A DNA stretch of 63,997 bases, the filler included, from Stramenopiles sp. TOSAG23-6 (Eukaryota): assembly GCA_900128565.1 (NCBI GenBank). It is 7 parts of 7 records of this genome, joined end to end, with 100 filler letters (N's around TTAATTAATTAA, not from the genome) between each part and the next. Parts side by side here need not be neighbours in the genome. Positions count along the whole stretch, not along the records: positions 1 to 9,346 come from LT636378.1; positions 9,447 to 18,762 come from LT636379.1; positions 18,863 to 28,173 come from LT636380.1; positions 28,274 to 37,583 come from LT636381.1; positions 37,684 to 46,988 come from LT636382.1; positions 47,089 to 56,392 come from LT636383.1; positions 56,493 to 63,997 come from LT636557.1. One strand, 5' to 3'. The translations under genes were made by a program, and so were the position numbers. Positions 6-63,997 of this stretch are shown piece after piece; position 1 is the first letter of the stretch; every line of letters starts with the position of its first letter. The notes beneath the pieces were generated by a model. That model worked only from the letters and a program-made list of their open reading frames with translations, was not told the origin of the DNA and searched no databases.

Positions 6-102
6 ATATCCTTGGAAAAAATTTTCAAAAAAAAAAAAAATTGTTAGGTACAAAATTTCGTATGAAAAAAAAAATCATACAAAAAAAAAAAATAAAACAT
101 AC
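6..102 (-). mobile_element. Introner-family intron (GT donor; 3' end approximate)
   Basis: AT|GTATGTTTT donor, TTCATACGAAATTTTGTACCTAAC core, TTTTTCCAAGGATAT end. Confidence 0.7.
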
Positions 103-1246
103 ATAACGTGTAGTAATCAACACCTCGTTTTTTTTGTACTGCGACTCGTATAAACCATTCTAGCAAGTTTGGCCATTGGCGGTCTAGAGCCAATACAGTT
201 TCAAAAGCATTTTCTGCTTGACTCGAATCACCAGATTCAAAGAAAATTATACCACGTTCAAAATAAGCCCGAGTAAATTGAGGTGCAATTAATAAAGCAT
301 TTTCAATAGATTGTAATGCATCAGTTGCAATTCGAGCTCGGCGATCACATTGAGCTTTCAATACATAAATACATGCAAATAGCCATTTCATATCATCTGA
401 AATTTCAATAGATTGTGACAATAATGTTTTGATGATTTCTTCATTTGTATCTTGAAATTGTAAGGCTTCAGAAAGTATTGAGGAACACTCTACATAATCA
501 TTTCTTTGTCGCGCTTCTTCAGCTTTTACCAATAGCATGTGCTGCCTTTTAGATAATATTGGAGAACGAAACAAAGTGGGACCATTGGTACCAATTAATT
601 GCCACGGAAGTTTTGTATGTACAATAAGATGATTATAAGCATGGAGAGATGATTTTTTTTTGTTTTGGATATGCATAGTTCCACCACTTAATTGTCGTAC
701 CATATTATCACTACCTATAAAAATTACTTGCCAAGGAAGTTCATCCAAATCTAACCCAGGAGAATTTTGAAGAGATGTATCAGTAGATTTCGCAGAACTG
801 GAATAATTCTTTTGATTACGATCAAGATATTCCCATCTTGTTCCAGCTCCTGGGATAATTGTAGCACCTTCATGACCAAATCGATCTCTACCAAGGTTAT
901 CAATAAAGACCCACTCTGTCTTTTCAGATCCGACTCTTTTAATACCAGAATCAATTTCAGGTGACTCTACGAGACCCATATACCACCCAGAAAAAACATG
1001 CTTATAAGCAAGCTGAAATATATGACGAATTGTCCTTGGTGTACCTTGAACAGCTCTATATGCACCATTCATGTCACTAATTGCAGACCCTGTCACGAAA
1101 AATCCTTTTGCAGGTTCTCGAACTCTGCCATAGGACTGGCGACGCTGACGGCCAGTATATGAACCCACAGCTCCTGGTCCAACCATTGAATTCCCCTTCA
1201 CTTTACATACCAAACATAGAAGACTTAAAAACAAAAAAAGTGACAT
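103..1246 (-). CDS. Signal-peptide protein with C-terminal TPR repeats (first exon; continues beyond an intron and the window edge)
   Basis: Hydrophobic N-terminus; TPR-like helices (ALQSIENALLIAPQFTRAYFERG); the ORF tail CMFYFFF is intron read-through; DYYTL at the exon end may start a J-domain. Confidence 0.6.
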
Positions 1247-1583
1247 TTTTTATTCAAGAGTATGACTGACCTCGGGATTATTCATATTGGATTTGTCCAA
1301 AAAAATATTTTCCTTGAAAAAAAACAAAATCCAAATTTTTTTATTTTTTTACTGACTCTCTTCTGGTATACGGTACCCAGTATTATACCCAGTTCCATTT
1401 TTGTTTGAGTAATTCACTCTCTTTTAAGTGATACTTTATAATCAATGTATGTTTCACGGTGTATGTAAATGAATATACAGAAGTAGCATAATACAAAAAA
1501 TCTATCAAAATAGTCAGAAAAAGCGAAATATTGAAAAATGTATAATAAAATAAAATTAAAAAATACTTCTTTTTATCAAAAAA

Positions 1584-3059
1584 TTAAATTATAGTAAAAC
1601 CAATCTTTTTCTCTGCTGCCATAACGACTTTACACTTATTTTTCATTTCATCTGAAGCATATTCCAAAGCATCGCCATGCTCTTTTACTGCTGCCATAAC
1701 AATTTCTAAATTATTCTTCATTTCATCTGAAGCAAATCTCAAAGCATTGCCACTCTCTTTCACTGCTGCCATAATAACTTTACAGTTATTCTTCATTTCA
1801 TCTGAAGCAAACTGCAAAGCATAGCCACTCTTTTTCACTGCTGCCATAACAATTTCTAAATTATTCTTCAATTGATATGAAGCAAACTGCAAAGCAGTAC
1901 CATTCGTTTTCACTGCTGCCATAACAATTTCTAATTTTTCCTTCATTTCATCTGAAGCATATTTCAAAGCATAGCCATTCTCTTTCACTGCTGCCATAAC
2001 AATTTCTAAATTATCCTTTATTTCATCTGAAGCATATTCCAAAGCAACACCATTCGTTTTCACTGCTGCCATAACAACATTCCAATTATTCTTCATTTCA
2101 TCTGAAACATACTCCAAAGCATAGCCACTCTCTTTCACTGCTGCCATAACAATTTCTAAATTATCCTTCATTTCATCTGAAGCAAATCTCAAAGCATTGC
2201 CACTCTCTTTCACTGCTGCCATAANAACTTTACAGTTATTCTTCATTTCATCTGAAGCATGTTTCAAAGTATAGCCACTCTTTTTCACTGCTGCCATAAC
2301 GACTTTACAATTATTCTTCATTTCATCTGAAACATATTTCAAATAATAGTTTTTTTTTGTCACAGCTCTTACCGCAAAGTTCTCATCATTTTTCAAAGAT
2401 TTTGAAGCCTCCTCTAGACAATCTCCGCCAATCCATTCTGAGAAATCTATTATAAATTGTCCATCATTTCTCAATTCTTCTGAAAGGTCATTACGAAGTT
2501 TGCGTCTAAATGATCTAAAGAAGTCATAATCTACATCTCCATCATCGAAATTACTTTCATCTTCATAAATGTTCATAACTCGAGCTAATGAGACCAAAAA
2601 GTCTTTATTCTTGAGAAGTACATCTGACTTTTTAAGATCTGTAAACATTTGATCCCAATTATCATCAAAACCTTCCATCCACCCGTTTTCCATTTGTTTT
2701 TCCATCATATTGTCCAAATAATCATGCCAGTTGTCTTCATCGACTTTTGCGTCAATGTAGTCAATTCCACACTTTGTTAACTCCTGGCATATACAATCTA
2801 TTTGTTTAGTGACCCTTTTCACTTGAATATTCACCCAGAATGATTTGACTAAACTTTGTTCAATGTTGAAGCACTTTCCAACAACTGTGACTAATTGTAT
2901 GTCACATTTAGTCACATATTCTACTATTAAAAAAACAACGGTCATAGGAATTTTATTCTGCAGGCTTTTGCACGACTTATCTGAAGACGTACTACTACTT
3001 GAACTTTCCCCCTCTACCCTGCGACTATCACTACCTCGACGTGAACTCTTTTTTGGCAT
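1584..3059 (-). CDS. DUF4116-type tandem repeat protein
   Basis: About 10 copies of a 25-aa repeat (ALxYASDEMKNNxEIVMAAVKxxG), i.e. a 75-nt tandem array at ~1610-2350. Confidence 0.8.
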   Translation of the reverse strand: MPKKSSRRGSDSRRVEGESSSSSTSSDKSCKSLQNKIPMTVVFLIVEYVTKCDIQLVTVVGKCFNIEQSLVKSFWVNIQVKRVTKQIDCICQELTKCGIDYIDAKVDEDNWHDYLDNMMEKQMENGWMEGFDDNWDQMFTDLKKSDVLLKNKDFLVSLARVMNIYEDESNFDDGDVDYDFFRSFRRKLRNDLSEELRNDGQFIIDFSEWIGGDCLEEASKSLKNDENFAVRAVTKKNYYLKYVSDEMKNNCKVVMAAVKKSGYTLKHASDEMKNNCKVXMAAVKESGNALRFASDEMKDNLEIVMAAVKESGYALEYVSDEMKNNWNVVMAAVKTNGVALEYASDEIKDNLEIVMAAVKENGYALKYASDEMKEKLEIVMAAVKTNGTALQFASYQLKNNLEIVMAAVKKSGYALQFASDEMKNNCKVIMAAVKESGNALRFASDEMKNNLEIVMAAVKEHGDALEYASDEMKNKCKVVMAAEKKIGFTII

Positions 3060-3449
3060 GCTGAACCAAAATAATTACAATCTCAATGCTTTGCCGTATC
3101 TATTGCAAACCTGACAAGGACAGCAATATTTCTGAAGATGTATTGAACAAAACTACATATACGGGAGACGTAGTTCGAATTATTCTGTCAAGACTCAAAG
3201 AGTACCTCATCTATCTATGCAGTGTATATCATGGTTTTTATGTTTCAGTAAAAAAAAATCAAAACTTTTTGAATAAATTATGAAGATTTGTTTGTTAGGG
3301 TTCGGGTTCCTAAACACGAAAAATGTCATTTTTTCAAACATCGAGTTCGCCTCGCGATTTGTGCTCCCAGCAGACGACGCAAACCTGTAAATTCGGTTTT
3401 TCGACAGTTCAACACTTTACTACAGTTCATATTATTCAACTAACTTTAA

Positions 3450-4972: not shown

Positions 4973-7900
4973 TCAGTGAAAAGGAGCTTTACTTTTTATT
5001 TGAGCTTTCTTTGCCTTTTCTCTTTTAGTTTGCAATAATTTAAGCATTCTATCTCGCTTTCGCTTGACACGATTTTCTGTAGGCTCTGAATTTGTAATAC
5101 GCCCCGCAATGGCCGCAGCTGCATTTGCATGTAGCATTTTTTTATCTGGATTATTTCGCATTTCTTTGCAATGTTTTCTTCTTTGTTCATTTCGTCGTTT
5201 TTGTTTAAGTTCATCATATGGTGATGATGATCGTGTTGAAGGTGATGTTTTCATTACATTTTCATTTTGAAGTTTTGTAGGTGAATGCACTTTATCATCA
5301 TTACAATGATTACATCGTATCGCTGCTCGTATAATTGACAGTCCAGACACAGTTTTTGCCCATAGAGAACGCGATGTATCTGATAGATCATTTTCTATCG
5401 CTGAAGATTGAAAAGACTGAAAAAAAAGTAGAAGTCCTTTCATTCCATCTTCATCTAAATTATATATTGTGAAAATATATTTCTTTTGTATAATTTGTTA
5501 GGTACGAAATTTTTATAAAAAAAAAAATAAATTCGAAATTGAAAAAATATAAAACATACATGTTCATTACAAAATTGTATGATCTCTTGTTGAATGTTAT
5601 TGATATTATTACCATCAATAGTAAATCCAAGATCGAACAATATACTTGAAACTTTTTCATTTGAGACATTTCTTTCCTGTAATCGATTTTTTTCTTTTGT
5701 TTGAAGTATTTCATAAATATACTTATATTTCATTACTTCACCGAGCAATCCATTATGATGGATTTCCTCTTTACAATTATTCCAAATTGTATCTACAGAT
5801 AATTGAAGTCGTGTAGCAATTCCCTGTGACTCTTGAATCATACTCTTGACTTCCTTCAATGCGACACGTCTAGCTTCTTCCAATTGTTTAACATATTGCT
5901 TACATGTATTTTGGAAAAATATTTGAAAAAAAAAACTTAATTTTTGTTAGGTACAAAATTTCGTACGAAAAAATAAATTCGAATTTGAAAAAAAAATAAA
6001 ACATACATCGTTGAGAAACTCCAGCAACAAGAGTATCAGACACGCGATTTCTTTCCGTTGTGGCTACACCAAGTTCATCCCATAAAGGTGAAAGATTGCT
6101 CAATGGAACAGCTATCTGTGATGCCATAGTAGCACAAGAGTTCTTAATTTCTAATTTAGATTGTAATTGACGATTTTTTTCACATTCAGTTTTAAGTTTT
6201 GCAGAAAGATTCGCAATTTCTTGATCGTTTTCTTCAGCTTTACTTGACATTCTTTGAATTTTTCTTTGTAATATTTTTTCTGAGGTTCGAAGGTAATGAT
6301 TTATCTTATTAGCGGCAATAAGACGTTCATCAATATCTTGTGGTTTCATCTTTATATGATCTATATTTGTGTTACTTATAGCTGGTGAATTAGGGTGTAC
6401 AGTACTTGGTGGTGGTGGTGTCGGCGGTGGCGCTTCAAAACACGGAGACCCTGAATTATGTGAAAAATCTCCACACTCTGTCGATGCATCTTGATGAGCG
6501 CTAATATAGACCAACATTCGTTCTTCAAAGTCTTGTGCTACTGCAGATTTTGCCATTTCAAATTTCATTTGAAGTGCTTTGCATGTTCTTTGTGCACTAC
6601 GGATATCTTCCGTTGCTTTTTTTGTACGTTCATCTGCCAATAACTTTTGTCTTTCAGATGTACGTAATTTAGTATTTACCTCTGCTATATTAGAAATTAA
6701 CCACTTAAAATGTTCTACTGTTACAGTTTTATCCGTAAATGTCTCTATTATATTACTTACATCATTATCTTCACGTAATAATTCTTTCAACTCTGACTTG
6801 GCTTCTTCTATACCTCCACTAGTACATGACATTTGAAGTTCTAGGGATTCAATTCTATCTTCTAAACTTTGAGGTTGTTCACCAAAACACCGATTATTAT
6901 CCAAACCAGCTTGGGTGTAGGTTTCTTCATCAAAGTCAGAAGTTTCCGGAATTAAAAATCCACATAGTTGTTTACCTATAGTAGTCATTGCACTTTTTAC
7001 ATATTTAACATCTTCACTGTGTTTGGAATTTAACAAATTACGATATAATTTTGTACATTGCCTAGTCAAACGACCATTTCTATTTCGAACTTTTCGTGTT
7101 GAAAAGATCATCGCAAAGATCGAAAGTTTTCTCATTATAGATGATCGTTTACTCTTATTCAAGCGCAAGGATATTAATGCCTTTAGTTGTCTTAAAAGTG
7201 ATTCTTGGCATTCAATTCCTTTTCGAATTGATATATTGTGAAAAATATTTTTTTTTTTGAAAAAAAATGTTAGGTATACAATTTTCTACCAAAAAAACAA
7301 AATTTGAAATTCATCTATGAAAACGTGCATGCTTTCGCCTCAAGAATTGATGTCTTCCGAAGAATTGCTGAATGTAATAATTCTCTCTGATGTATTGTGA
7401 AAAAATATTTTTTTTTTTTTTACCGAAAAAAAAGAAATTCGTTAGGTACAAAATTTTCTTAGTAAAAAAAATAAATTCGAAATTCAAAAAAAAACATACA
7501 TGTTCCATTACCGAAGTTTTTCGACTTGAAGAAGACTTTTTATCCTTATTTAGAGATTTCTTTTTCTTTTCATTTCTTTGCTCTTTTAACGATTTCATTA
7601 ACTGAGCCTGCGATTTCCGATATCTCTCATTAGCTACAATTAGAGCAGCTTTTCGACGTAAAAGTATTGTGTCTTGCACAGCCACCTGACGTTTATGAAT
7701 TCGCGCATCTTTGTCGCTTTTTTTGTGCTTTCGACGCAATATTTTAATTTCATTTTGTTTGGACATTTTCCAATTTTTATGACGTTTGGCTTCTGCCTTT
7801 TGCCTTCTTAATAAAGACACTCTAGCCTTCTTCAACTTTTCCAAATTCATTTGTACTATTTTACATTTTCTTGTCTCTTTCTCTGCCAAACGAAGTAAGT

Positions 7901-8789: not shown

Positions 8790-8850
8790 CTGTATTGTGA
8801 AGAAATAGTATAGAAAAAAATTCGTTAGGTATGACATTTTGTATGAAAAC
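8790..8850 (-). mobile_element. 3' half of a family intron ending in AG, at the APC5/kinesin junction
   Basis: TTTTCATACAAAATGTCATACCTAAC...CACAATACAG|gca aat cgt; no normal 5' half. Confidence 0.6.
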
Positions 8851-9346
8851 ATCCCTATCATAGAGCAATCACCCGCAAGTGAAGGGCCAACAGCCACTAA
8901 TGCAGCCTCAGCAACAGCAAGTGATGATAACCCTGCTAATTCACGCATACCTAGATTTCGTGCTCTTTCAGCACAATGCTGTAATAACCATCCCGCATCT
9001 GGATCTCTAGATGCTATAGCTATACGGTGTAGCATAGATAGAGCAAGGGCTACACTATTATGTATTGTAAAAAATATATTTTTTTAAAATTCGTTAGTTA
9101 CAAAATCTTCTACCAAAAACAAATGTAGTAAAAATTTTAAATGTAAGATGGACACAAACATGATCTTCAGTTTCCTGCGCAGTATAAATGGCTTCCTGTA
9201 GTGACGTCACTGCTTCTTTTAAATGACCAAAATGATAATGTAAACCAGCGATACTCAGCGCAGAGTACTGCGGTCGAAAATTTTTGGATACGTCTGAAGA
9301 CAACTCAGTATTTGCATTGCGTGAATTTGAAACACCAGAACTAGTT
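8851..9346 (-). CDS. ANAPC5: Anaphase-promoting complex subunit 5 fragment (exons 9346-9160 and 9059-~8851)
   Basis: QYSALSIAGLHYHFGH..LQEAIYTAQETEDH-NSVALALSML and LLQHCAERARNLGM resemble the APC5 TPR region. Confidence 0.75.
9060..9159 (-). mobile_element. Introner-family intron, GT-AT (diverged copy)
   Basis: cat|GTTTGT...TAACTAAC...TACAATACAT|aat; keeps the APC5 DHxxxxxxLSxL register. Confidence 0.8.
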
Positions 9347-9446: not shown

Positions 9447-9532
9447 AATATTTCAAAAAAAAAAAACTTAAATTTGTTAGGTACAAAATTTCGTACGAAA
9501 AAACATCCGAATTTGAAAAAAATAAAACATAC
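9447..9532 (-). mobile_element. Introner-family intron truncated by the contig end
   Basis: at|GTATGTTTT donor plus full core. Confidence 0.8.
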
Positions 9533-9998
9533 ATGCTTGAGAATCAATAATATTTTTACATAAAATAGTTTTTGTGTTTTTTGTAGTATTGCAATTATCA
9601 AGTTGAATCATATTTGTATTATCAGACATTATATTTTTTTCATTGTTTGTGTTTTTTGTAGTATTGCAATTGTCAAGTTGAATCATATTTTGATCGCCAT
9701 TCCTAAAATGACGCTGCGTACGCAAAAACTCTTGTGCTATATCAGGTTGTTCAAATCCATCAATTTGTTTCTTTTTACAATCCGGGCAAGTAATGTGAAA
9801 AATATTTTTGTTTTTCGTTAGTAAAAGAAATTCGTTAGGTACAAGATTTTCATACAAAAAATAAAAAAAAATTAAAAATGATGAAAACATACAAAACCAA
9901 TCGCCTTTGGGTAAACTAACGAGAATTGGTTGTAAACAAAACATATGAAACCCTCTATCACATTTATCACATAAAAGCAGTGAATCATCGTCGCTATC
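9533..9998 (-). CDS. PHD-finger protein fragment (exons 9998-9893, 9787-9533)
   Basis: [37 protein letters not shown]. Confidence 0.8.
9788..9892 (-). mobile_element. Introner-family intron, apparent GT-TT
   Basis: ttt t|GTATGT...CACATTACTT|gc ccg restores WFCPDC. Confidence 0.7.
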
Positions 9999-10106
9999 AT
10001 GTATTTTGAAAAATATTTCCAAAAAAAAAACTTAAATTTGTTAGGTACAAAATTTCGTACGAAAAAAAATCGATTTTTTTGTAAAAAAAAAAATAAAAAA
10101 AAATAC
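9999..10106 (-). mobile_element. Introner-family intron, GT-AT
   Basis: cat|GTATTTT...core...CAAAATACAT|gat. Confidence 0.75.
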
Positions 10107-10874
10107 ATGAGTGTGTTTTGAAGTGGATGGAAATGTGTATTTTTTCGTAAGTTCTCTTTTTGAAGCGCCTTTTAATGAATTTCCCTTTATTTTGGAATCT
10201 TCATTTTGGTTGCCATCTTTTTTTTCATTAGGGTTAGGAGAATCTTCAGGAAGTCCTCCTATCATATATGTATTTTGGAAAAATATTTGAAAAAAAAATC
10301 GTTAGGTACGAAATTTCGTACGAAAAAAAAAATTTCGAATTTGAAAAAACATAAAACATATACACTGGTCCACATTGAGATGGTTCCACATTTAATGTTT
10401 CGGGTGTTTTTTGACCATTACTATTGCCAGTTGTATTCCAATGTATTTTGGAAAAATATTTCAAAAAAAAATTTAAAAAAATTGTTAGGTACAAAATTTC
10501 GTACGAAAAAAAAATTGAAAAAAAAATAAAAACATACATTAGTAATTTCTGTGTTGAAATCTTCGGAAAATGCCAACGCCCATTGGAATACATCATTTAC
10601 AACTATACCAGTTTCAGCATGTATTGACGCTGCCATTGCGATTTTTGTATTCAATACAACTTCACCGGTTTTTGCAACTGTAACGATGTTATATTCATCA
10701 TTTTTTACAATCCATTGGCCTTTAGCATTTGCATGTATTTTGGAAAAATATTTCAAAAAAAAATTTGAAAATTTTTTAGGTACAAAATTTCGTACGAAAA
10801 AAAAAATGTAGACAAAAAATTAAAAAAAAAGATAAACGTACACCAATTGCAAAATTATTTGTTCCCGAACCCAT
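10107..10874 (-). CDS. Hypothetical multi-exon protein (10874-10842, 10732-10538, 10440-10358, 10263-10107)
   Basis: Open frame MGSGTNNFAIG-ANAKGQWIV..ITN-WNTTG..PVYM-IGGLPED after removing three family introns. Confidence 0.5.
10264..10357 (-). mobile_element. Introner-family intron (boundaries slide within a TATATG direct repeat)
   Basis: Full core; 94 nt must be removed to keep the frame. Confidence 0.7.
10441..10537 (-). mobile_element. Introner-family intron, GT-AT
   Basis: aat|GTATGT...CCAAAATACAT|tgg. Confidence 0.8.
10733..10841 (-). mobile_element. Introner-family intron, GT-AT
   Basis: ggt|GTACGTTT...CCAAAATACAT|gca. Confidence 0.75.
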
Positions 10875-11017
10875 AGATTGTTGAATAATATATAAATGCT
10901 TCATTTTGTTAGGTTTTGTTAGGTAAAAAATGTTGAATAATACATAAATGCTTCATTTTGTATTTGTATCTACAATTAGGTACAAAATGAAGTACAAATA
11001 TAATTTTTATTTTGGTT

Positions 11018-11674
11018 CTATATTGATGATTGTGTAGAGATTTTGGAAAAAAAAATCAAAAAAAAAAACGTTTTAGGTTTAGGTACAAAGTTTTCAAAAA
11101 AAAGAAAATAAGATGAATAAAAAACGTACATGATAAGAAAAGCATCCTGTTCAGCTGCTGCTTGAATGGTGACTGTTGATGCTATCATTCGGTTTTCTAC
11201 ACCACGGGCAATACTATCAAAAACGTTGGATATTTTATTTTTTGCTTTTTTTTCTGCTGTTGCTGCTGCATCGACAGCACGATTGACACTGCCACCAGGC
11301 ACAGCCATAGCACTAAGAGCAAGAGCAGGCAAAGCTTTATGTTGTGTCATAGACTCAACTTCAAGCATAGATAGACCATCTTGGTTATATTTGTTATATT
11401 CGTTGGAAGCTGTTTTCATTGAAGGAGACATTCCCGCGAGTTGTTCAAAACAATATCCTTGAGGGTCCTTGACACCCTTATCATATGAGTAGAAACAATG
11501 CATACCTGAAGTACAATCAGTATGAGAAGTACACGCGCGAAGTCCTAACTGATCAGCTGTTTGGTTAGTTGTGTTAATTTCAAGTGAATTTTCTAATTTT
11601 GAAGCAACGGCAAAGTCTGTTGACAAGAAGAAAGTTAAAAAGAAATGTAACTTATACAGTACTGCCACATCCAT
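11018..11674 (-). CDS. Secreted hypothetical protein with a small Cys motif; family intron near the 3' end (donor 11129, acceptor ~11036-11040)
   Basis: Signal peptide; CTSHTDCTSGMHC motif; at|GTACGTTTT..TTTGTACCTAAACCTAAAAC. Confidence 0.55.
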   Translation of the reverse strand: MDVAVLYKLHFFLTFFLSTDFAVASKLENSLEINTTNQTADQLGLRACTSHTDCTSGMHCFYSYDKGVKDPQGYCFEQLAGMSPSMKTASNEYNKYNQDGLSMLEVESMTQHKALPALALSAMAVPGGSVNRAVDAAATAEKKAKNKISNVFDSIARGVENRMIASTVTIQAAAEQDAFLIMYVFYSSYFLFFENFVPKPKTFFFLIFFSKISTQSSI

Positions 11675-17619: not shown

Positions 17620-18650
17620 TTTTTCTTTGTTTTTTAGTTAGGGTTAGGGTTGTTGTTGTATTGTCTTCATCGCATCTTTTTTGTTTTTTTGTATTTGTTT
17701 TTGCACTTTTTGTAGATAATCCACTATCACTANTTCGTGNTTTTTTTNCCCACNGGTGCAGATTTAAATATAACTTTACGCAATGTTGTTGATAGTTGTA
17801 CAGGTTTTGTAAGTAAAACACATTGTTGGACATCAAATAAAGCCATATATTGAAATGCTTGTAAGGGAGGACATAATGGATAATTATCGTTTTTCGTGTT
17901 TTTGTATTTCGTATTTTTCGTATTTTTCGTATTTTTCGTATTTTTCGTATTTTCAAATACAATACTTTGTGAAATTTCGTCATTTTCAGGAAGAATAACC
18001 TCAACTATATAAGAATTCTCTGGTGCATCTTTTTTTGTATTTCTACGAAATTGTAAATTATCAATGTAATGTGTGGAAAAAATGACAAATATGTTTTTTT
18101 TTGTTAGATATTATAATATTATATTAAAAAAAAAAAAAAAAAATTTTGAAAAATAATTTTTTTTTCATCAAATGTAGTGTTAGTAGGGTTAGGGTTGCTA
18201 CTAGGGTTGTGTAATGTTAGGGTTAGGGTTAACGTACATAATTTGAACTTGAAATGAAGTACAAGATAAAAGCCATTCATCAAATGTATTAACAATGACG
18301 GCATCGTCTCTATACCATTTGCCTGTCTTTTTCAATGCATTTCGAACCATTTTTTTATTTCTGAATAAAATCATCGCTAAAGTAGGTTCAAATATTCCAC
18401 TTTTCGGCTTGAAAAGATCAAGATTTTTTAATGGCTCAACAACACTTCTATACAAAAAAAGACTAGGTGTACTAGGGTTAGGGTTCGTACTAGGGTTAGG
18501 GTTTACGTTATACAAAAAACCGGAATTTAAATTTTTTGTTATATTTAGTAGTCGACTTAATTTTTGACACCGTAAGGAAGATTCTATCCTCAATGCTAAT
18601 AATTTATTACGTACAATAGGTACATTACTGGACAAATCTGCTTTAGAAAA
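17620..18650 (-). CDS. Hypothetical protein fragment, ends approximate; diverged family intron at ~18115-18237
   Basis: Open frames on either side of at|GTACGTTAACCCTAAC; the 3' half of another copy lies at ~18651-18720. Confidence 0.35.
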
Positions 18651-18762
18651 ATAATTTGTGAAAAATATTTCAATTTTGATTTGTTTTCCTACATTAGGTA
18701 ACAAAATTTTTTTTACCAAAAAAAAAAAAAGATGCGATGAAGACAATACAACAACAACCCTA

Positions 18763-18862: not shown

Positions 18863-18892
18863 TTTTTTTTTTTTTTTTTTTTCACAATATAT

Positions 18893-19730
18893 GGTTCATT
18901 ACGCTTCAATGTTGATCCATTTAACGAATCTACTGATGAACAAGTCTTACATGCATTATCCACAGTTGGTATTTCAGAAAATAGCAATTGGATTCAAACT
19001 TCAAATCAAAACGTTGTGGACAAACATGAAAAAACACGAAATCCGACAAACATGACAAACACGAAATATAAGCATTGTGTAATACATCCTTTATTAAGTA
19101 CGGAAATTAAAGAACATGGGAATAATCTAAGCGCAGGACAAAAACAATGCGTCTCTTTAGCAAGAGCAATTTTAAGAAAAACAGAAATTTTGATTTTAGA
19201 TGAAGCTACTGCAAATGTTTGTTTTCAATACTTATTTTCAATATTTATTTATTTATTTTTAATATTTATTTTCAAAAAAAAATTTCAGTTTTTAATGTTC
19301 AATTTTTAATGTTCAATTGTATTTCAAAAAAAAAAAATTTCAAAATTTTTAATTTTCAATATTTATTTTCAATTTTTTTAATGTTCAATTGTATTTCAAA
19401 AAAAAAAAATTCAAAAATTTCAAATTTTTTTTTGTATAGTACATTTCGTACCTAACATATTCACCAAACACTGAAAAAATAAAAAAAATCACAAAACATG
19501 TGGATTACCAAACTGATAATTTGGTACAAAATTTGATACGTAAATCATCCATTTTTCAAAAAGCCACAGTGATTACAATTGCACATCGTATTTCAACTGT
19601 TATTGACTGTGATGTCATTGTTGTAATGGAAAATGGTACAATTATTGAAATGGGATCACCTGAAAAATTGTGTAAGTTAGAGAATGGACATTTTAAACGT
19701 TTATTGGATGCATCAAAAAGAGAAAAGTAA
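18893..19730 (+). CDS. ABCC/MRP transporter, C-terminal nucleotide-binding domain (exons 18893-19216, 19500-19730)
   Basis: [39 protein letters not shown] and TVITIAHR motifs. Confidence 0.93.
19217..19499 (+). mobile_element. Introner-family intron, GT-AT, expanded to 283 nt by internal duplication
   Basis: aat|GTTTGT...TCGTACCTAAC...ACAAAACAT|gtg restores DEATANVD. Confidence 0.9.
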
Positions 19731-25775: not shown

Positions 25776-27097
25776 ATACAACTGATAATGATGTCATTTT
25801 TTACTATGTACTAAACATTGAAATGAAACATTGAAATGAAACATTGAATTGAATTTGTTACGAAATTTCATACAAAAAAAAAATTGAACTGAATTTGTAC
25901 ATATCTATACAAGGGTTAGGGTTTATCTGGTCATTGTAGGCGATATGGTGTTTATGTAATACATATATTGCATGTATTTAATAATTAGGTTTTTTCAAGG
26001 TTTTTGTACTCAAAATTTGTATTTGTCTTTTTGTTAACTGAGTTGTAACTTGTAATAAATAAAGTTTCAAAATACACAATGCAAAATTGTAATTCAGCAC
26101 AAAAAAAATCGTTAGGTACAACATTTGGCACGAAAAAACATTCTTAACATAAATTGAATAAACAAAAACTTGAAATTGAAAATAAAAATTTCGAGACAAT
26201 TCATTTTTAACATTACATTCAAACAATAAATTTGAAATTGAAATGATATAATATATTATATATATATATAATGTATATAATGTGTTTTATATGTTTTATA
26301 TGAATTGGGCTATTGCTAACCCAAACGATAATCTTGATGATGTAATTTATTTTCATGGACATTTAAAAAAAAAAAAATTTTTTCAAGAAAATTTTCAAAA
26401 ATTTTCAAAAATTTAAAAAAATTTTAAAAAATTTTAAAAAATGAAAATTAAATCAATATTTTTGTTTTTACATTTTCACACAATAGGTACAAAAACCATT
26501 TTGGGCTTGGTGGTAACGCTATTGGGCTAAGGCTATAAAACATCTTCTTACAAAATGTTGTGAGAATACTAGCTAGGGTTAGGGTTTGCTAGACTCTGAT
26601 GAGATTCTCACTAGGGTTAGGGTTATATGTACAGTCAACAACACATATTTTTATATATTATATGACGTCATTGGGATACAATACTTTTTGTATATATCCC
26701 ATTATAATATATCATTAGAGTTGAAAATACCGAAATATAAATATTCAAAGAAATGTAAAACATTTTGATGATTTGAAGTATTGAAAACCCTAACCCTAAA
26801 AATTTAAATAAAATTCAGTGGTCAAAATATCATTTTTTTTATTAGGTACGAAAAAATGGTACAATCTGCTGTTGATATTTCGTGTGTCCGTCAAATGAAC
26901 TGTGTTTCTCTTGTCACTTTCTCCTTGCTCAAATCTTACTACGCTTCTACATGTTTAGTCGACAAATTATCATCGAGAGGTTGTGTACATTTTAACTACA
27001 AGATAGATACATTTATACATACATCTTTATCCATTCATCAATAGTATAGCTCATAGCAGTTCAATCATATNGTTTTTTATTATTCTTTACAAAGCTA

Positions 27098-28094: not shown

Positions 28095-28109
28095 GTATGT
28101 TTATACTTG

Positions 28110-28145
<36 letters not shown>

Positions 28146-28173
28146 TTTTTAAATTTTTTTTTTCACAATTTTT
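28095..28173 (+). mobile_element. Probable family intron truncated by the contig end
   Basis: ggt|GTATGTTT followed by A/T tracts. Confidence 0.55.
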
Positions 28174-42680: not shown

Positions 42681-43251
42681 ATGTGTACAAAAAAACAGGC
42701 ATATCTCATTATACTAATATTTATAGGATACTCCAACGCGGTAGATTCGGAGTGTGAATCTTTAACCGAAGGTGGTTGTACACCAAATCCAATAATGGCG
42801 TCAGCTGATAAAAAAACAACAGTGTCGCATGCTAATACGTTGGGCTATAATTTTGAAGTCTGGGGAAAAGTTCAAGGTGTTTGGATGCGAAAACATTCCA
42901 AGATGAAGGCGGATGAGCTCAATATTACAGGTTGGATTCAAAATACGTCAGACAAAACTGTAAAGGGCCAAATGTTTGGCACAAGAGACAACATTAAAAA
43001 ATTCCAGAATTGGTTGGAAAAGGAAGGTGCTCCAAAGGCAAAACCAAGCAGAGCAAAATTCTCTGTCGTAGAAAATGTTCAAAATAAGGTTCTTTTCCAT
43101 GTATGTTTTCATCATTTTTTTCAAATTTATTTTTTTATACGAAACTTTGTACCTAACAATTAAAAAAAAAAAAAAAAAAAGTATTTTCACAATACATGAT
43201 TTCACAATTAAAAAAGTGAAACTTGCAAATGGTACAGAATGGGCAGTTTGA
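42681..43251 (+). CDS. Acylphosphatase with N-terminal signal peptide (exons 42681-43100, 43198-43251)
   Basis: FEVWGKVQGVWMR and GWIQNT..TVKG motifs; C-terminal DFTIKK is recovered by splicing. Confidence 0.9.
43101..43197 (+). mobile_element. Introner-family intron, GT-AT
   Basis: cat|GTATGT...CACAATACAT|gat ttc aca att restores the last acylphosphatase strand. Confidence 0.88.
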
Positions 43252-43413: not shown

Positions 43414-46400
43414 CTAATTTTTTTTTCCTTTTGTATGAGTTTCTCTAATAAGTTGAGCAAGACTTCGATTACGCTTACCCCAACCTCCACTAGTAGAACG
43501 ATCGCAGTTATTATCCTTCCATGCACTTTTAGGGTGTTTGGAGGTTTTAGGGCTAGGGTTAGTAGTATTTATTTTATGACTAGTCTCCTGAGTTGGAATT
43601 ACCCAGGATTTTTTCGTATAATTAGGGTTAGGGTTAGTTATACTCGATTTTCTACTGACCAAGTTTGGCGTGCTATTATTTGTTCTTCGTTTCACAATTT
43701 TTTTTGATTGTCTTTTATTTTTAGAATTTTTAGAATTATTTACTGACGCATTTTTTGGCGTGTTTGTAGCAGCACTGGCATAGGATTTTTTGATTGGAAT
43801 ATATCGAGTAGAAGAACTTTTTGAATCTTTACCAAATCCTATAGATCCTATACGGTTTTTCGTACCTAATGAATTTCGAATTTGTTGAGAATGTTTCGTA
43901 TTTAATTTATTGTTATTGCTCTTGGACAATTTCACGTTTTCCTGAATATTTGAGTTATTTGAGTTATTTGAGTGATTTAAGCTATCGCGAGTAGAAAGAC
44001 AAGCATAAGGTACAATAGGTACAGGATATTCCCGCACACTTAATTCATTGATGGCTTGTATTACAATATTTGTATTTCCATGTTTATAATTCTTTTTATC
44101 ATCTGATATTGGTGACATTTCAATATTATTAGGATTATTAGGATTATTAGGATTCGGACAAAGATACAATAAACGCTGAAAAAGTTCACCAAAAGCAACT
44201 TGAACGCGAAACATCATAAAAGATCCGGCTGCTGCATTAATACCAGGGTTTAGCGGATCTTCTATAAATATAGGAGATAAATGACGATGTTGGACTAGTT
44301 CCGAACCATTCCGAGAGAAAGACATTATGACGTCATTACCAATACAAATAGACTGTGAATCAAACGTGTGTAAAAAACCAAGTAACATTTGCCCTATATC
44401 ACTATAGTACCCATTTGAAACGTTCATCTGAAAAAAGAAAATCATTAATAACGACAACGCATAACTTCCCAACCCTCCGCGGTACACATTACTAAGACCT
44501 TTCGATACTAAATATCTTTTAATAACCATAACAAGAATCCGAAGCTCCGGCTTATTCTTTAATTGTTGTTTGATAAATTCACATGCAGCAATTCCATGAT
44601 GACCCCCAATCGCTTTATGTCCAATTGTGACATCAATAGGGACTCCAGATTTCAATTTTGCCTTCAAAACAGGCACTTCCGTTGTGCCAATTGTTTTTGC
44701 TGATATAACCCAAGGCTGTTCTTTCAATTCTTGTTCAAGAGAACGCAACAATCCTAGGGTACGAAACGCATCGATTGCGCCAGAGTGCTGCACACCAAAA
44801 TCAATATCAGAGTGACCGGGTAACCATAGACCAGTCGCAAAAGATCCAAAAGCAGCACATTTTGAGGATGGCCATAATCTTTTTATTAATTTTTGAATGC
44901 CATCGACTGCAACATTTGCATCTTTTCTAGAATAATGTTTATAATTTTTCCGGTGACTAAAATTTTCTATATTATTTTCTATACTAGTAATCATTGCATG
45001 TAAATCATGCGAAAGTTTCAATTCAGGTAAGGGTCGACTAGAGCATCCATTTTCATTTACATGTTTTACATTTTTTACATTTGAAGGTTTATGCGAGGGT
45101 GACGTTGAAGGAATATTCAATTTAGCACGAACAATGTTTGATGTCCACACAGATTTTCTATTATTTTGGGGTTTCGTGTGATTCAACTCGATTGTATTTG
45201 ATGGTTGTACCGTTTGTTTTTCAGAGTCACAAATAGATTGTTTTACTACTTTGTTGGGCATCTCACTCTTATGTTCACTGGCTGGCATCCCAAATCCAAT
45301 AATAACACGCACAGTCTCTGGTGGCATTGATGAAAAATTTGGTAAATTTATTTTCACCCACCTCATTTCTTCTAAAGTTACTTTTAATATCTGATGATCA
45401 GCACATAAAAGTGAAAAAATACTTTCATCACTTTCTTGTGCTAGTCTATGAAATTGATAATCTTTTCTTACCCAATAAAAATTGCCTAAATTACATTGCT
45501 GGATTTCTTGAGGATTAGGCATTCGAATATTTGGCATACTTGGCATATTTGGCGATATATTTCCAGTCTCTAGAGTAGATTTATTATACACTGTGAAAAA
45601 TATTTTTTGTTTGTTGGAAAAATTGTTAGGTACAAAATTTCGTACGAAAAAAAAATCGATTTTCAAAAAATTAAAACGTACATTGTGACTCACTGTCGTG
45701 ACAGACTTGCCATAAGCAATCTCAGGTGAGCATGATGATTCTGTACTTAATTTTGTACTTGATGGCGTGTACACTCGAGGAGTTTGAGGAGGTTTTGAAC
45801 AGGGGCAATCATGCATTATGAAAAAATATTATTGTAGTTAAAAAAAATGTTAGGTACGGAATTTCATCCGAAAATGTTTTTTAGTAAAAAAAAGAAAAAA
45901 ATTCGAAACGGGAGAAACATTCAATTTTGAAAACGTACATCGTTCATTGAATTGGCTAAGGCATTTTTTCTAGAATTCTTTTTATCAATATTTCGTTTTT
46001 CAATATTGGCATTGACTATACCTTGAGAAGATACACAAGAAATAGTTGCATTTCGTTCACAATCCTCCGCAGATTTACCATTTATTGAATCTGTACCAAA
46101 TTTCGTACTTGAAGAATTTCGGATCTCTTTATAATCATTATCAATATTATCCTTATTTTCATTCGGGTGATAATCTGTACCAAATTTCGTACTTGAAGAA
46201 TTTCGGATCTCTTTATAATCATTTTCATTCGGATGATATTCACTTGGTACATTTGAATTTGCATCCGTCGTATATTTTGAGCCCGACGAATTTCGAATTT
46301 GTTGAGTACGTGATATTTTTCCACTGTTAAGTTTTATTTGTATATTATTTTCTTCACAATCATTTTTATCAGTATCTTTTGTCCCAATATTTGTCCCTGT

Positions 46401-46928: not shown

Positions 46929-46988
46929 ATGAGTTTTGGAAAAATATTTCAAAAAAAAAAACTAAAATTTGTTAGGTACAAAATTTCG
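46929..46988 (-). mobile_element. 3' half of a family intron at the contig end
   Basis: CGAAATTTTGTACCTAAC...CCAAAACTCAT|tca. Confidence 0.75.
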
Positions 46989-56278: not shown

Positions 56279-56392
56279 GTATGTTTTATTTTTTTTTTTT
56301 TTTCCGGTAAAAAAAAAATCGATTTTTTTTATAGTAAATTTTGTACCTAACAAATTTTTTTAGATTTTTTTTCAAATATTTTTCCAAAATAC
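56279..56392 (+). mobile_element. Introner-family intron running to the contig end
   Basis: tat|GTATGT...TACCTAAC...CCAAAATAC. Confidence 0.8.
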
Positions 56393-56492
56393 NNNNNNNN
56401 NNNNNNNNNNNNNNNNNNNNNNNNNNNNNNNNNNNNTTAATTAATTAANNNNNNNNNNNNNNNNNNNNNNNNNNNNNNNNNNNNNNNNNNNN
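56393..56492. other. Artificial contig linker
   Basis: N44-TTAATTAATTAA-N44. Confidence 0.98.
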
Positions 56493-56493
56493 C

Positions 56494-56586
56494 ATGTATT
56501 TTGGAAAAATATTTCAAATGATTTTTCGTTAGGTACAAAATTTCGTACGAAAAAAAATTTCGAAATTGAAAAAAAATGAAACATAC
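56494..56586 (-). mobile_element. Introner-family intron, GT-AT
   Basis: at|GTATGT...CCAAAATACAT|g. Confidence 0.8.
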
Positions 56587-62929: not shown

Positions 62930-63164
62930 TTTCTTGAAAAGATTTACGGTATTGAATCCAATTTGAAATACTAAAATGAATGGTGTAGATAACCGGCGTA
63001 TCCTCCACAATGGAAAAATTTGAAAAAATTATTTAAAATCGTGAACCCTAACCCTAACGACGACCGACAATGTCGTACCGACTGGTCAAGACTCACTCGC
63101 GGCCAAAACGCCAACCAAAATTAAAGTCTTTGTATTGTGAATTTTAATTTATTAGTGATGCAAA

Positions 63165-63909
63165 ATGTCGAATTCAGTAATTTTAGCGACAGCTGGTTAT
63201 GATCACACTATCCGATTTTGGAAAGCTTCTAATGGAGTTTGTTATCGAACGTTGCAGTTTGCAGACTCACAGGTGAATCGCTTAGAAATTACTCCAAACA
63301 AGAAATACATTGCAGCTGCAGGTAACCCTCATGTTCGCTTATTTGAAATTGATAGTGGAAACCCTAATCCAATTTATTGCTATGACGGTCATACGGCGAG
63401 TGTTACTGCTGTAGGCTTTCAGAAAGATAGTAAATGGATGTACACAGGAAGTGAAGATGGGACAGTCAAAATTTGGGATTTGAGAGCTCGTGGTTGTCAA
63501 AGAGACTATGAGAGTTCTGCCCCTGTGAATAGTGTAGTTTTACATCCTAACCAAGCAGAACTTATTTCTGGCGATCGAGATGGTGTTATTAGAGTGTGGG
63601 ATTTGACTGCAAATAAATGCGTCAAAGAATTTAGACCGGATGGTAAGATGTTCGTTTTCATCATGAATTTCAAATTTATGTTTTTTTCGTAGAAAATTCC
63701 ATACCTAACGATTTTTTTTTTTTTAAATTTTTCACAATACATTGCAATTCAGTCGACTTCTATAGCAGCGGATGCTTCGTTATTTGTAGCAGCAACTGCA
63801 ACTGGGCACTGCTACGTATGGCGCCCACGTGACGATTACAAACCTGTTCAAAGATTCAAAGCACATAATGGCTATATTTTAAAGTGTCAACTCAGTCCGG
63901 ACTTGAGAT
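63165..63909 (+). CDS. LST8: TOR complex subunit LST8 (exons 63165-63649, 63743-63909; continues)
   Basis: [42 protein letters not shown]. Confidence 0.97.
63650..63742 (+). mobile_element. Introner-family intron, GT-AT
   Basis: aag at|GTTCGT...TACCTAAC...CACAATACAT|t gca restores PDGKIAIQS; the next AG is out of frame. Confidence 0.88.
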
Positions 63910-63997
63910 GTATGTTTTTTTTTTTTTTTTTCAAATTCGAATTTTTTTTTTCGTACGAAATTTTGTACCTAACGATTTTTTTTGAAATATTTTTCCA
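63910..63997 (+). mobile_element. Introner-family intron cut by the window end
   Basis: aga t|GTATGT plus full consensus core. Confidence 0.85.

Follow-up and report, generated by a model that had tools for sequence, protein, structure and literature searches.

What is the short, AT-rich sequence that recurs in unrelated genes of an uncultured marine eukaryote (Stramenopiles sp. TOSAG23-6), and how does the splicing machinery of its host deal with it? The window, that is, the whole stretch of DNA analysed here (63,997 nt, 35% GC), consists of 7 short contigs joined by linkers of the form N44-TTAATTAATTAA-N44 at 9347-9446, 18763-18862, 28174-28273, 37584-37683, 46989-47088 and 56393-56492. The recurring copies form a family with GT...AT termini that is abundant, breaks the assembly and is removed from mRNA. 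We favor the reading, at a probability of roughly two-thirds, that they are an introner family with its own donor and branch site, removed by a spliceosome that accepts YAT, the last AT possibly being a duplicated target. The family offers a natural system in which to study how introns multiply and how cut sites are chosen during splicing.

A family of related introns on all seven contigs

Motif searches of the window with the 25-nt core TTTCGTACGAAATTTTGTACCTAAC returned 18 matches at up to 3 mismatches, against 0 expected, and the core is preserved exactly in 10 copies. The block CAAATTCGAATTT was found 11 times at up to 1 mismatch, against 0.96 expected, some sites being tallied on both strands because the motif is palindromic. 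An nhmmer profile seeded with 16 hand-picked copies recovered 32 loci at E<=1e-3, the 16 seeds among them, and gave no matches in either of two decoys, the reversed window and a block-shuffled one. By hand we tallied 38 family loci (Table 1), close to the 37 or so claimed by the first-pass annotation, which had rightly described a high-copy family: 25 are complete with the core, 9 are cut by a contig end and 4 are degenerate or partial. Besides these, 3 CCCTAA-rich introns have the same termini and a different interior. The examples singled out in that annotation (5904-6006, 10441-10537, 63910 onwards, 9060-9159 and 27817-27934) all have correct coordinates, although 27817-27934 lacks the family core. 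Lengths fall at 88-136 nt, the range it had given for most copies, in 23 of the 28 complete introns, and are 165, 170, 174, 257 and 283 nt in the rest.

As had also been claimed, copies are present on 7 of 7 contigs and in mutually unrelated hosts (TPR, ABCC, mitochondrial carrier, C2/EF-hand, poly(A)-polymerase-like, PPR and SPRING1-like). Within ORF-defined genes, 34 of the 38 loci lie in gene sense, as do the 5'-truncated copy at 18650-18740 and the 3' end at a contig start at 18863-18892; the only family loci in an ORF-less stretch are 25852-25888 and 26060-26170. The gene-sense orientation first noted where the host is clear holds for all copies within recognisable genes. Sequence likeness between copies ends at the intron borders, with a mean ungapped pairwise identity of 0.52 over the 30 nt at the start of the introns and of 0.57 over the 30 nt at their end, against 0.30 and 0.27 over 30 nt of flanking exon. 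Pairwise identity among copies has a median of 0.71 and a maximum of 0.91; conservation peaks at the donor, branch site and acceptor, and the T/A-run spacers vary in length. Of the 12 internal contig ends, 8 are inside a copy or at most 5 nt away from one, as are 10 of all 14 ends, which upholds the proposal that the repeat fragments the assembly and that most internal ends fall in a copy.

Table 1. Family copies and similarly bounded introns in the window. A slash within a sequence or joint marks a splice junction; the two values for open codons are those on either side of the spliced junction.
Position	Strand	Feature	Remarks
6..102	-	Complete copy, GT...AT, exon flank AT	5 nt from contig start
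47..1249		TPR-repeat host ORF of 6..102
5462..5559	-	Complete copy, 98 nt, GT...AT, phase 0	1125/162 open codons spliced
5904..6006	-	Near-consensus copy, 103 nt, GT...AT, phase 1
7231..7328	-	GC-donor copy, GCACGT...ATATAT, 98 nt, phase 1
7390..7499	-	Complete copy, 110 nt, GT...AT, phase 0	In-frame CAG 3 nt downstream, so may end in AG instead
8791..8875	-	Degenerate short copy, GG for GT, CAG end	Stop-free, in frame with host ORF; either exonised or an in-frame intron of 63/66 nt
9060..9159	-	Diverged copy, 100 nt, GTTTGT...ACAT, phase 0
9447..9532	-	Copy cut by contig start, 5' part kept
9788..9892	-	GT...TT copy, 105 nt, phase 1	Exon flank also TT
9999..10106	-	Complete copy, 108 nt, GTATTT...ACAT, phase 0
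10268..10361	-	Copy with A at intron position 1, ATATGT...ACAT	RNA contig joint 10262/10357
10441..10537	-	Near-consensus copy, 97 nt, GTATGT...ACAT	Exact skip in polyA RNA, joint 10440/10538
10733..10841	-	Complete copy, 109 nt, exon flank GT, GT...AT, phase 0
10873..11129	-	Long intron, 257 nt, family 5' part and core, then internally duplicated tail, CTAT end
18064..18237	-	CCCTAA-rich intron, family-type ends AT/GTACGT...CATTACAT/	Not a core-family member
18450..18614	-	CCCTAA-rich intron	Frame needs cut after ...TTTGTAT, not at AG 2 bases on
18650..18740	-	Copy without recognisable 5' end, CACAAATTAT at 3' end
18863..18892	+	Copy 3' end at contig start, T-run then CACAATATAT	ABCC exon directly after
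19217..19499	+	283-nt intron, family core, tandem duplications inside	Splits ABCC ...DEATAN/VDYQTD...
24150..24285	+	Complete copy, 136 nt, GT...AAAT, phase 1	551/496 open codons
25852..25888	-	Short core fragment, ORF-less stretch	Profile E 0.0087
26060..26170	-	Degenerate copy, ORF-less stretch (intergenic or untranslated region)	Profile E 3e-6
27509..27640	+	Complete copy, 132 nt	Splits mitochondrial-carrier signature
27817..27934	+	CCCTAA-rich intron, GTAGGT...AATGTAT	Mitochondrial-carrier gene
28095..28173	+	Copy cut by contig end
28274..28349	-	Copy cut by contig start
34856..34947	+	Complete copy, 92 nt, phase 2	C2/EF-hand/WW gene
35162..35253	+	Complete copy, 92 nt, TCAT end, phase 0
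35450..35537	+	Complete copy, 88 nt, exon flank TG, GT...AT, phase 1
43101..43197	+	Complete copy, 97 nt	Stop after only 17 codons; probably last intron of its gene
45586..45681	-	Complete copy, 96 nt, GTAT end	Poly(A)-polymerase-like gene
45811..45938	-	Complete copy, 128 nt, GCAT end, phase 0
46930..46988	-	Copy 3' part, cut by contig end
47089..47139	-	Copy 5' part, cut by contig start
47907..47999	-	Diverged copy, 93 nt, branch motif TATCTAAC, phase 0	Preceding exon 2258 codons
55978..56086	+	Complete copy, 109 nt, exon flank AG, GTACGA...ACAT	Following exon opens with the same 12 nt as the intron
56279..56392	+	Copy cut by contig end	2 nt short of expected 3' end
56493..56586	-	Copy with 3' end at contig start
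59761..59930	+	170-nt composite (copy and partial second copy), GT...AT, phase 2	PPR-repeat gene
63650..63742	+	Complete copy, 93 nt, GTTCGT...ACAT
63910..63997	+	Near-consensus copy cut by window end

Abundance and likeness beyond splice signals

From a seawater DNA run (X3), 7,618 contigs align to the 8.3-kb stretch, including 4,413 that do so in two locations. Summed contig depth, which is not the same as copy number, is 10,825-40,602 in bins holding near-consensus copies versus 3.4-9.0 in the copy-free bins of 11109-17732, and is consistent with a very large excess of copies.

One might instead see here old, independent introns that share strict, unusual splice signals and AT-rich filler, with no mobile element involved. 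The position of the conserved blocks, the variable spacers, the median identity between copies and the recurrence of the same termini on introns with unrelated interiors all lean this way. Part of the family likeness could indeed be splicing constraint, because the best-conserved blocks are the donor, branch site and acceptor, and the termini may be general splice signals of the organism and not the ends of a transposon, because the 3 CCCTAA-rich introns have the same ends. However, the 17 conserved bases upstream of CTAAC, together with the CAAATTCGAATTT block, far exceed known signal needs, and the exact 25-mers, the lack of profile matches in decoys of the same composition and the contig ends at copies argue for a family, as do the thousands of metagenome contigs that stack on copies and not on neighbouring exons. 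We consider independent old introns highly improbable.

Copies are removed from mRNA

The copies are real introns. A polyA-RNA contig (X9 record 25) aligns to 10538-10681, 10357-10440 and 10123-10262 with adjoining record positions, and 10441-10537 and 10263-10356 are therefore skipped exactly; this direct RNA support comprises 1 contig at ~97% identity from 1 metatranscriptome and covers 2 introns. Removal of 10263-10356 or of 10268-10361 gives an identical mRNA.

Reading frames across the 28 complete introns agree with removal, a junction being counted as open if at least 30 open codons lie on both sides. Cutting at the family-aligned ends left 26 of 28 junctions open, while shifting the 3' end by +1, +2, -1 or -2 left 2, 6, 8 and 2, respectively, and reading through without removal was possible in just 3. 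In addition, 3 junctions are consistent with solved ABCC and mitochondrial-carrier homologues. The ABCC exons around 19217-19499 align to adjoining residues, 1466/1467 in 9c12_A, 1458/1459 in 9lg6_A and 1359/1360 in 8wi0_A, and removal of 27509-27640 rejoins NPTD/VIKARMQ, the carrier signature P-x-[DE]-x-x-[KR]-x-[KR].

Nearly all the introns end in AT

Among the 28 introns with definable ends, the first two bases are GT in 26, GC in 1 and AT in 1, and the last two are AT in 27, TT in 1 and AG in none, the exact cut being ambiguous by at most 2 nt in 22 copies owing to the AT repeat; the pair GT...AT, in place of the near-universal GT...AG, occurs in 25. Exon positions -2 and -1 are AT in 22 of 28, against a background of 0.094 (p = 5e-18), and exon position +1 is G in 17. 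From the branch motif to 40 nt past the AT end, in-frame AG is absent in half of the introns (14/28), including 3 of the 4 for which RNA or homology pins down the junction exactly; in the remaining one, 10268-10361, AGs occur in frame at +9, +12 and +24. At 18450-18614, where an AG follows 2 nt after the AT, the frame is kept only by the AT cut.

Read two bases to the left, 13 of the 28 copies can be written as ATGTAYGT...AC, formally AT...AC, and software that permits AT-AC introns would label them as minor-spliceosome (U12-type) introns; ACCTAAC also loosely resembles the U12 branch consensus. That assignment strikes us as hardly credible. The 5' end of the copies is ATGTAYGT, whereas the U12 consensus is RTATCCTT, and GTAYGT with CTAAC is the classical major-spliceosome pair. 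In the shifted register AT starts 22 of 28 introns and AC ends only 18, a poorer conservation pattern than in the GT...AT register. The branch motif of compact family copies lies 29-51 nt from the 3' end, a greater distance than U12 introns tolerate. Thus donor and branch consensus, branch-to-acceptor distance and conservation pattern do not fit the U12 class.

How the family may have spread

Under the introner reading, many copies of one short, non-coding, very AT-rich element (~90-135 nt) would lie within protein-coding genes in gene sense and leave the mRNA as spliceosomal introns. Each would bring its own donor (GTAYGT, within GTAYGTTTT), a branch site GTACCTAAC (ACCTAAC) preceded by the palindrome TTTCGTACGAAA, and a 3' block AATATTTTTC(C/A)AAATACAT, and would be bracketed by AT, one at the exon end and one at the intron end. 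Splicing would take out the element plus one AT and therefore restore the original frame exactly. Since the acceptor is YAT and not YAG, the major-type spliceosome of the host must accept U for the last G, which suggests a changed 3' specificity. Spread may have occurred by non-autonomous DNA transposition with duplication of a 2-nt AT target, the duplicated AT then serving as the 3' splice dinucleotide, much as Micromonas introners recruit an AG from their target duplication.

The sole transposon marks are the 2-nt AT direct repeat at the copy borders and a 6-nt inverted terminus (ATGTAT and ATACAT), and the former is indistinguishable from a target or splice-site preference. A longer, transposase-encoding element with the same ends, which the first-pass annotation had thought worth seeking, did not turn up: the window contains no autonomous element and no transposase among the 30 ORFs scanned, and apart from two degenerate copies none is clearly intergenic or antisense.

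A duplication of no more than 2 nt, an inverted terminus of only 6 nt and the lack of a transposase in the window fit an RNA route, in which an excised intron reverse-splices into a different transcript at ...AT/G..., is reverse-transcribed and recombines into a gene; the terminal AT would then be the intron's own, and the exonic AT a target preference of reverse splicing and not a target duplication. The insertion context AT/G equals the canonical AG/G proto-splice site with one base changed, and the copies in recognisable genes all run in gene sense. However, sense-only exonic copies are also expected from selection after random DNA insertion, and two loci, a degenerate copy and a fragment, fall in sequence with no visible ORF. 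Moreover, the elements contain DNA-type palindromes, CAAATTCGAATTTG and TTTCGTACGAAA, and in 3 loci TTCGAA is replaced by ATCGAT, again a palindrome, for which an RNA-only signal has no evident need. On balance we judge the RNA route unlikely.

Relation to known introns

The primary papers on the introners of Micromonas and Aureococcus are reportedly Worden 2009 and Huff 2016. As described in PMC11282704, introners of Micromonas pusilla and Aureococcus anophagefferens are MITE-like and, like the copies studied here, are short, non-coding, high-copy, spliced out of unrelated genes of a marine unicellular host, and carry one splice site; in Micromonas IE1 it is the target duplication from which the 3' dinucleotide is recruited. 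The same description gives them GT/GC...AG ends, 3-nt duplications and clear inverted ends, which set apart our family with its AT acceptor, 2-nt repeat and 6-nt inverted terminus. The original likening to these introners thus probably holds as regards an introner family, but not for the GT...AT ends, which had been missed and are the most unusual feature of the family.

The non-canonical introner elements of the parasitic dinoflagellate Amoebophrya (Farhat et al. 2021), in the account of PMC7789003, resemble ours as repeated introns of a marine protist with non-GT-AG borders, short direct repeats over the exon/intron boundaries and a proposed mobile-element origin. That account reports no dominant dinucleotide pair, hairpin-forming inverted repeats of 8-20 nt, no detectable U1 and a GC content of ~54-58%. 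In contrast, our family has a fixed GT...AT pair, an intact GTAYGT donor and CTAAC branch site, weak predicted RNA folding (z -2.5 to +0.7) and 35% GC.

The introns of the tunicate Fritillaria borealis (Henriet et al. 2019), which PMC11282704 and PMC13326754 describe, are likewise transposon-derived with a non-AG 3' end (AG-AC, AG-AT), an exonic repeat that supplies one splice site, and a major-type spliceosome of altered tolerance. By that description they start with AG and lack a canonical donor, whereas our family has a textbook GTAYGT donor and an acceptor that departs in the last base only. Finally, the non-conventional introns of euglenids and diplonemids, as presented in PMC11282704 and PMC12621601, share non-GT-AG borders, short junction repeats and a proposed MITE origin; there they are said to lack U1-complementary donors and to need a stable end-pairing structure, with G/C-rich ends in diplonemids, unlike the canonical donor, AT-rich ends and end helix of at most 6 bp seen here.

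Host genes and sequence setting

The seven contigs are about 9.3 kb each (the last 7.5 kb) and are joined by linkers of the form N44-TTAATTAATTAA-N44, with an overall GC content of 34.7%. Genes in the window are eukaryotic and closely packed. Those recognised include histone H3, dynactin subunit 5, the tail of an ABCC transporter and a mitochondrial carrier, and further proteins are of the C2/EF-hand, IQ, PPR and hnRNP-Q/CID types. Among DNA runs, two small libraries from 2015 match the stretch best and may be its source sample; it is also present in seawater metagenomes and metatranscriptomes of other studies. Protein-cluster look-ups for two of the genes gave generic TPR clusters and dynactin-5 clusters made up mainly of animal sequences. 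ORFs of 4.0 and 6.8 kb are free of introns, as is the canonical histone H3 gene, and several coding tandem repeats bear no relation to the introns. An Rfam scan of the window returned no match, and no snRNA was seen in it.

Positions of introns and other features discussed in the text
Positions	Feature	Observation
3296-3308	Telomere-like motif	About 150 nt upstream of the histone H3 start codon
3460-3870	Histone H3	Canonical, intronless
1491-2465, 60943-61386, 50851-51084, 15915-16094	Coding tandem repeats	Types include 75-nt DUF4116, 12-nt, 39-nt and 36-nt units
7390-7499	Intron	In-frame CAG 3 nt downstream of the AT, a possible alternative end
8791-8875	Short degenerate copy	GG for GT, ends in CAG; stop-free and in frame with the host ORF
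9447-11129	Cluster of copies	Seven within 1.7 kb of one gene
9788-9892	Intron	Flanked by TT, ends in TT
10123-10262, 10357-10440, 10538-10681	Exon segments	Covered by X9 record 25, record coordinates adjoining
10263-10356	Intron	Skipped exactly in X9 record 25
10268-10361	Fixed junction	In-frame AGs at +9, +12 and +24
10441-10537	Intron	Skipped exactly in X9 record 25; in-frame AG absent
10873-11129, 59761-59930	Longer copies	Composite or internally duplicated
17640-17690, 18720-18762	Stretch of about 43 nt	Two copies, opposite orientation, 1 kb apart
18064-18237	Intron	CCCTAA-rich interior
18450-18614	Intron	CCCTAA-rich interior; AG 2 bases beyond the AT, yet frame kept by the AT cut only
18650-18740	Intron copy	Expected 5' end replaced by the second 43-nt stretch
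19217-19499	ABCC intron	Composite or internally duplicated; in-frame AG absent
27509-27640	Mitochondrial-carrier intron	In-frame AG absent
27817-27934	Intron	CCCTAA-rich interior; colinear with UCP2 within one residue
34856-35537	Cluster of copies	Three in 0.7 kb at a gene 3' end; first 5.1 kb of the gene without copies
55978-56086	Intron	Its first 12 bases reopen the following exon (55978-56100)
17414-17426, 18184-18230, 18473-18503, 24651-24837, 25386-25447, 26574-26624, 27823-27835, 43623-43635, 55576-55789, 56115-56243, 63044-63056	Telomere-type sites	Examples

A family of related introns

Introners are well known in marine protists, and the first-pass annotation had proposed a family of about 37 such related introns here. 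Our analysis confirms this family: a hand tally gives 38 loci (25 complete copies that contain the core, 9 truncated at contig ends and 4 that are degenerate or partial), and a profile built from 16 copies matches 32 loci in the window at E<=1e-3 and none in either decoy, the reversed or the block-shuffled window. The 25-nt core, TTTCGTACGAAATTTTGTACCTAAC, has 18 matches in the window at up to 3 mismatches, 10 of them exact, against none in shuffles. Three additional introns, outside the 38, have family-type ends around a CCCTAA-rich interior. With 38 loci in 63.5 kb, there are about 0.6 copies per kb, and 6.3% of the window is family sequence. Each of the seven contigs carries copies, lengths of 88-136 nt account for 23 of the 28 complete introns, and 10 of the 14 contig ends fall in a copy or within 5 nt of one.

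Sequence likeness ends at the intron borders, and copies sit in non-paralogous genes of differing host families. Flanking exons are 27-30% identical, which is the level of unrelated AT-rich DNA, whereas the first and last 30 intron bases reach 52-57% without gaps; when 22 compact copies are aligned in pairs with gaps, identity is 0.71 at the median and 0.91 at most. Copies tend to cluster within genes, and adjacent copies tend toward the same subtype. The degenerate copy at 8791-8875 would add 21 odd residues if read through, and may be either an exonised introner or a 63/66-nt in-frame intron. The 43-nt stretch, which ends in CCCTAACCCTAAC and reaches a contig end in its second occurrence, may represent another repeat family.

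Abundance was assessed by placing contigs of public runs on an 8.3-kb stretch (9447-17732). From the seawater DNA run X3, 7,618 contigs were placed, of which 4,413 fit in two places. Summed over these contigs, depth reached 10,825-40,602 in the four bins that contain near-consensus copies versus 3.4-9.0 in the copy-free bins of 11109-17732. Such sums do not measure copy number, and other organisms may contribute to them, so the figures are read here solely as a sign of a very large excess, on the order of thousands. In the polyA-selected seawater metatranscriptome X9, the ratio of element to unique depth (90 against 0-5) was far lower than in X3, a comparison in which contig depth cannot rank parts; the low ratio would fit efficient splicing, and we do not lean on it. 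Element depth is high in two further runs, X6 and X7, which may include DNA. The many apparent joints in the DNA data are contigs of other copies aligned across copies, not deletions, and were left out of the evidence. The exact 25-mer gave no match in JGI metagenome contigs or in IMG/VR, and IMG/VR scans with the element core and termini gave no true match. Matches to a 19-mer at three metagenome loci (L001-L003) had nothing else in common with the element and were set down to chance, as was one IMG/VR locus (L004), ordinary coding DNA without likeness to the element, that was hit by a gapped pattern of termini and branch site.

The modest identity among copies, and the unrelated introns that share their ends, could suggest old introns whose signals have converged. 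This is very unlikely given the long conserved core, the empty decoy controls, the broken assembly and the pile-up of metagenome contigs on the copies.

The copies are removed from mRNA

Three independent lines of evidence, namely RNA joints, restored reading frames and colinearity with solved homologues, show that the copies are introns removed from mRNA. Record 25 of X9, a single 374-nt contig from a close relative (13 differing letters over 368 aligned), covers three exon segments whose record coordinates adjoin, and thus skips two introns exactly; RNA-level support spans these two introns in this one metatranscriptome contig. Protein searches of metatranscriptomes with an exon query ('longer' lengths) and with an 896-aa ORF query returned nothing at the chosen E-value cut-off.

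For the frame test, the 28 complete introns were cut at their family-aligned ends and at least 30 open codons were called for on each side. After splicing, 26 of the 28 junctions were open on both sides, many with hundreds of codons, and one contig 1 gene reads across five introns for more than 1,280 codons. Shifting the 3' end left far fewer junctions open (2, 6, 8 and 2 of 28 for shifts of +1, +2, -1 and -2, respectively), and only 3 of the 28 introns can be read through unspliced. Of the two junctions that did not open at the family-aligned ends, one belongs to a copy 5 nt from a contig end and the other to what is probably the last intron of its gene. Homology places the same cuts: exons around the ABCC intron match adjoining residues of three solved transporters (1466/1467, 1458/1459 and 1359/1360), and removal of the mitochondrial-carrier intron rejoins ...NPTD|VIKARMQ..., which we take to be the carrier signature.

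Introns end in AT rather than AG

The last G of an intron is among the most conserved bases in eukaryotic genes. AG is absent from the ends of all 28 introns defined in the window: 27 finish in AT and one in TT, and the final four bases are ACAT in 17, ATAT or GTAT in 6 and other in 5, with a pyrimidine at position -3 in 27. By comparison with the canonical GT-AG class, the copies have the donor and a CTRAY-type branch site but not the AG end. First bases are GT in 26 of the 28 (GC and AT once each), and 20 carry GTAYGT. The upstream exon ends in AT in 22 of 28 (background 0.094, p = 5e-18), and the downstream exon begins with G in 17.

With AT on both sides, the cut in those copies can be written as GT...AT, TG...CA or AT...AC, which leaves an uncertainty of 2 nt about its exact place in most copies. 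Copies with a different exon flank, among them 10733-10841, 18450-18614, 35450-35537 and 55978-56086, decide the register in favour of GT...AT, which is complete in 25 of 28, compared with only 13 for AT...AC. In 14 of the 28, no in-frame AG occurs between the branch motif and 40 nt past the AT end; these include three of the four junctions whose position RNA or homology settles to the base.

The AT...AC register raises the question of U12-type introns, to which the copies bear little resemblance. The U12 donor consensus is RTATCCTT and its branch site lies about 10-26 nt from the 3' end, whereas the copies begin GTAYGT (or ATGTAYGT if read two bases to the left) and place the branch motif 29-51 nt before the 3' end in the 19 family copies no longer than 110 nt, and 50-205 nt before it in longer or composite core-bearing copies. 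The pattern of conservation fails as well, and we regard a U12-type origin as highly improbable. GTAYGT and ACCTAAC are the classical U1/U6 and U2 targets, so on established spliceosome biology we infer that the major spliceosome removes the copies.

Repeated introns with non-canonical borders are described for Amoebophrya (PMC7789003), and for dinoflagellates and Fritillaria (PMC11282704, PMC13326754); such cases either show hairpins, no U1 and a wide variety of borders, or have AG-AC/AG-AT borders. The present introns differ from both kinds, since the Fritillaria type starts with AG and ends in AC or AT, and the euglenid/Amoebophrya type has a stable hairpin joining the junctions. Here predicted folding is weak (MFE z-scores of -2.5 to +0.7 against mononucleotide shuffles), and the sole recurrent feature is a helix of at most 6 bp, present in 8 of 23 predicted structures, that pairs the exon AT and following GTAT with the final six bases of the intron. 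RNA end-pairing is a weak candidate for the splice determinant. A branch-side hairpin, GTACGA/UUGUAC, was rejected as unsupported: it shows no compensatory changes and pairs no better than shuffles, with one of its pairs wrongly placed on a gap column.

In a search confined largely to open-access papers, without their supplements, no published family turned up that combines a canonical donor and branch site with a fixed AT acceptor. 'GT-AT' together with introner gave no literature match, and supplementary introner catalogues could hold the family. The word 'introner' is absent from the marine single-cell genome papers found, one of which mentions introns in its methods only (PMC5778133). Large published introner surveys work from introns already annotated and exclude any family whose splice sites are unfamiliar unless RNA backs it (PMC12130899), a design that would probably miss a family like the present one. 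In a survey of mirusviruses, one Demutovirales family, whose branch motif is WCTAAC, is enriched for AT-AC introns (PMC12768974); introns of the present kind would be labelled AT-AC, as in that survey.

Element anatomy and a possible origin of the AT acceptor

Read in gene sense, the exon ends ...AT and is followed by GTAYGTTTT, often CAAATTCGAATTTG, a T run, TTTCGTACGAAA, TTTTGTACCTAAC, a T/A run and (G)AAATATTTTTC(C/A)AAATACAT, after which the next exon usually begins with G. CAAATTCGAATTTG is a 14-nt palindrome (TTCGAA in 9 loci, with the palindrome ATCGAT in 3) and TTTCGTACGAAA a 12-nt palindrome (CGTACG in 13 loci). The branch motif GTACCTAA occurs in 28 of the 38 loci, which account for 28 of its 32 occurrences in the window. 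Two subtypes appear to exist, ending ...CCAAAATACAT and ...TTCACAATACAT. Inverted ends are limited to ATGTAT/ATACAT, plus TTTT/AAAA after a 1-nt offset; according to a review, terminal inverted repeats are not present in all published introners (PMC11282704).

Each copy is removed precisely together with one of the two ATs, and the host reading frame is thereby restored. By analogy with Micromonas IE1, whose 3' AG derives from target duplication according to that same review (PMC11282704), the element may insert at AT and duplicate it, with the downstream AT becoming the acceptor. The acceptor reads Y-A-T|G, the canonical Y-A-G|G with its last base changed. A direct AT repeat is present in 22 of 28 introns and TT/TT in one, the latter (9788-9892) fitting duplication; the third base shows no co-variation, and 2 nt can also be read as a splice-site or target preference. 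At 55978-56086 the repeated 12 bases include an A that departs from the family consensus, which points to duplication at this site alone, either local or of a much longer target.

The broadest reading is that AT has replaced the AG rule genome-wide, with essentially all introns derived from one introner superfamily, the duplicated AT target serving as acceptor, and the second-step machinery (together with U2AF-type recognition, if present) co-evolved to read YAU. We give this a probability of about 0.35, based on 28 definable introns in 64 kb, three of them with unrelated interiors and none ending in AG; mobility, age and genome-wide generality are extrapolated from these 64 kb. Spread through RNA by reverse splicing would account for the sense-only orientation of copies, the AT|G context of their sites and the absence of any long duplication; we consider this route unlikely. 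Palindromes of the DNA type speak for an element recognised as DNA. No transposase was found among the 30 ORFs scanned in the window.

YAT is where this lineage cuts tens of introns in the 64 kb, and probably thousands across its genome, and the donor and branch site remain of the textbook kind. The single variable isolated is the last base of the acceptor; in Amoebophrya and Fritillaria both ends vary, and the natural experiment is less clean. Should the AT be a target duplication, introners would be shown not only to borrow AG but to impose an acceptor that is new to the host. In practice, hardly any intron-bearing gene of this organism will come intact out of gene finders that assume GT-AG, aligners will label 13 of the 28 introns 'AT-AC minor-type', and the repeat shatters short-read assemblies.

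Telomere-type repeats

A telomere-type unit pair (CCCTAACCCTA) has 22 exact matches in the window, and with up to one mismatch the 13-mer is observed 27 times versus 0.03 expected. Both strands carry sites: some are intergenic, some fall in three of the introns, and others lie within ORFs, where they read in frame as TLTL, PNPN or LGLG. They are often paired 18-200 nt apart, and some of the pairs are inverted.
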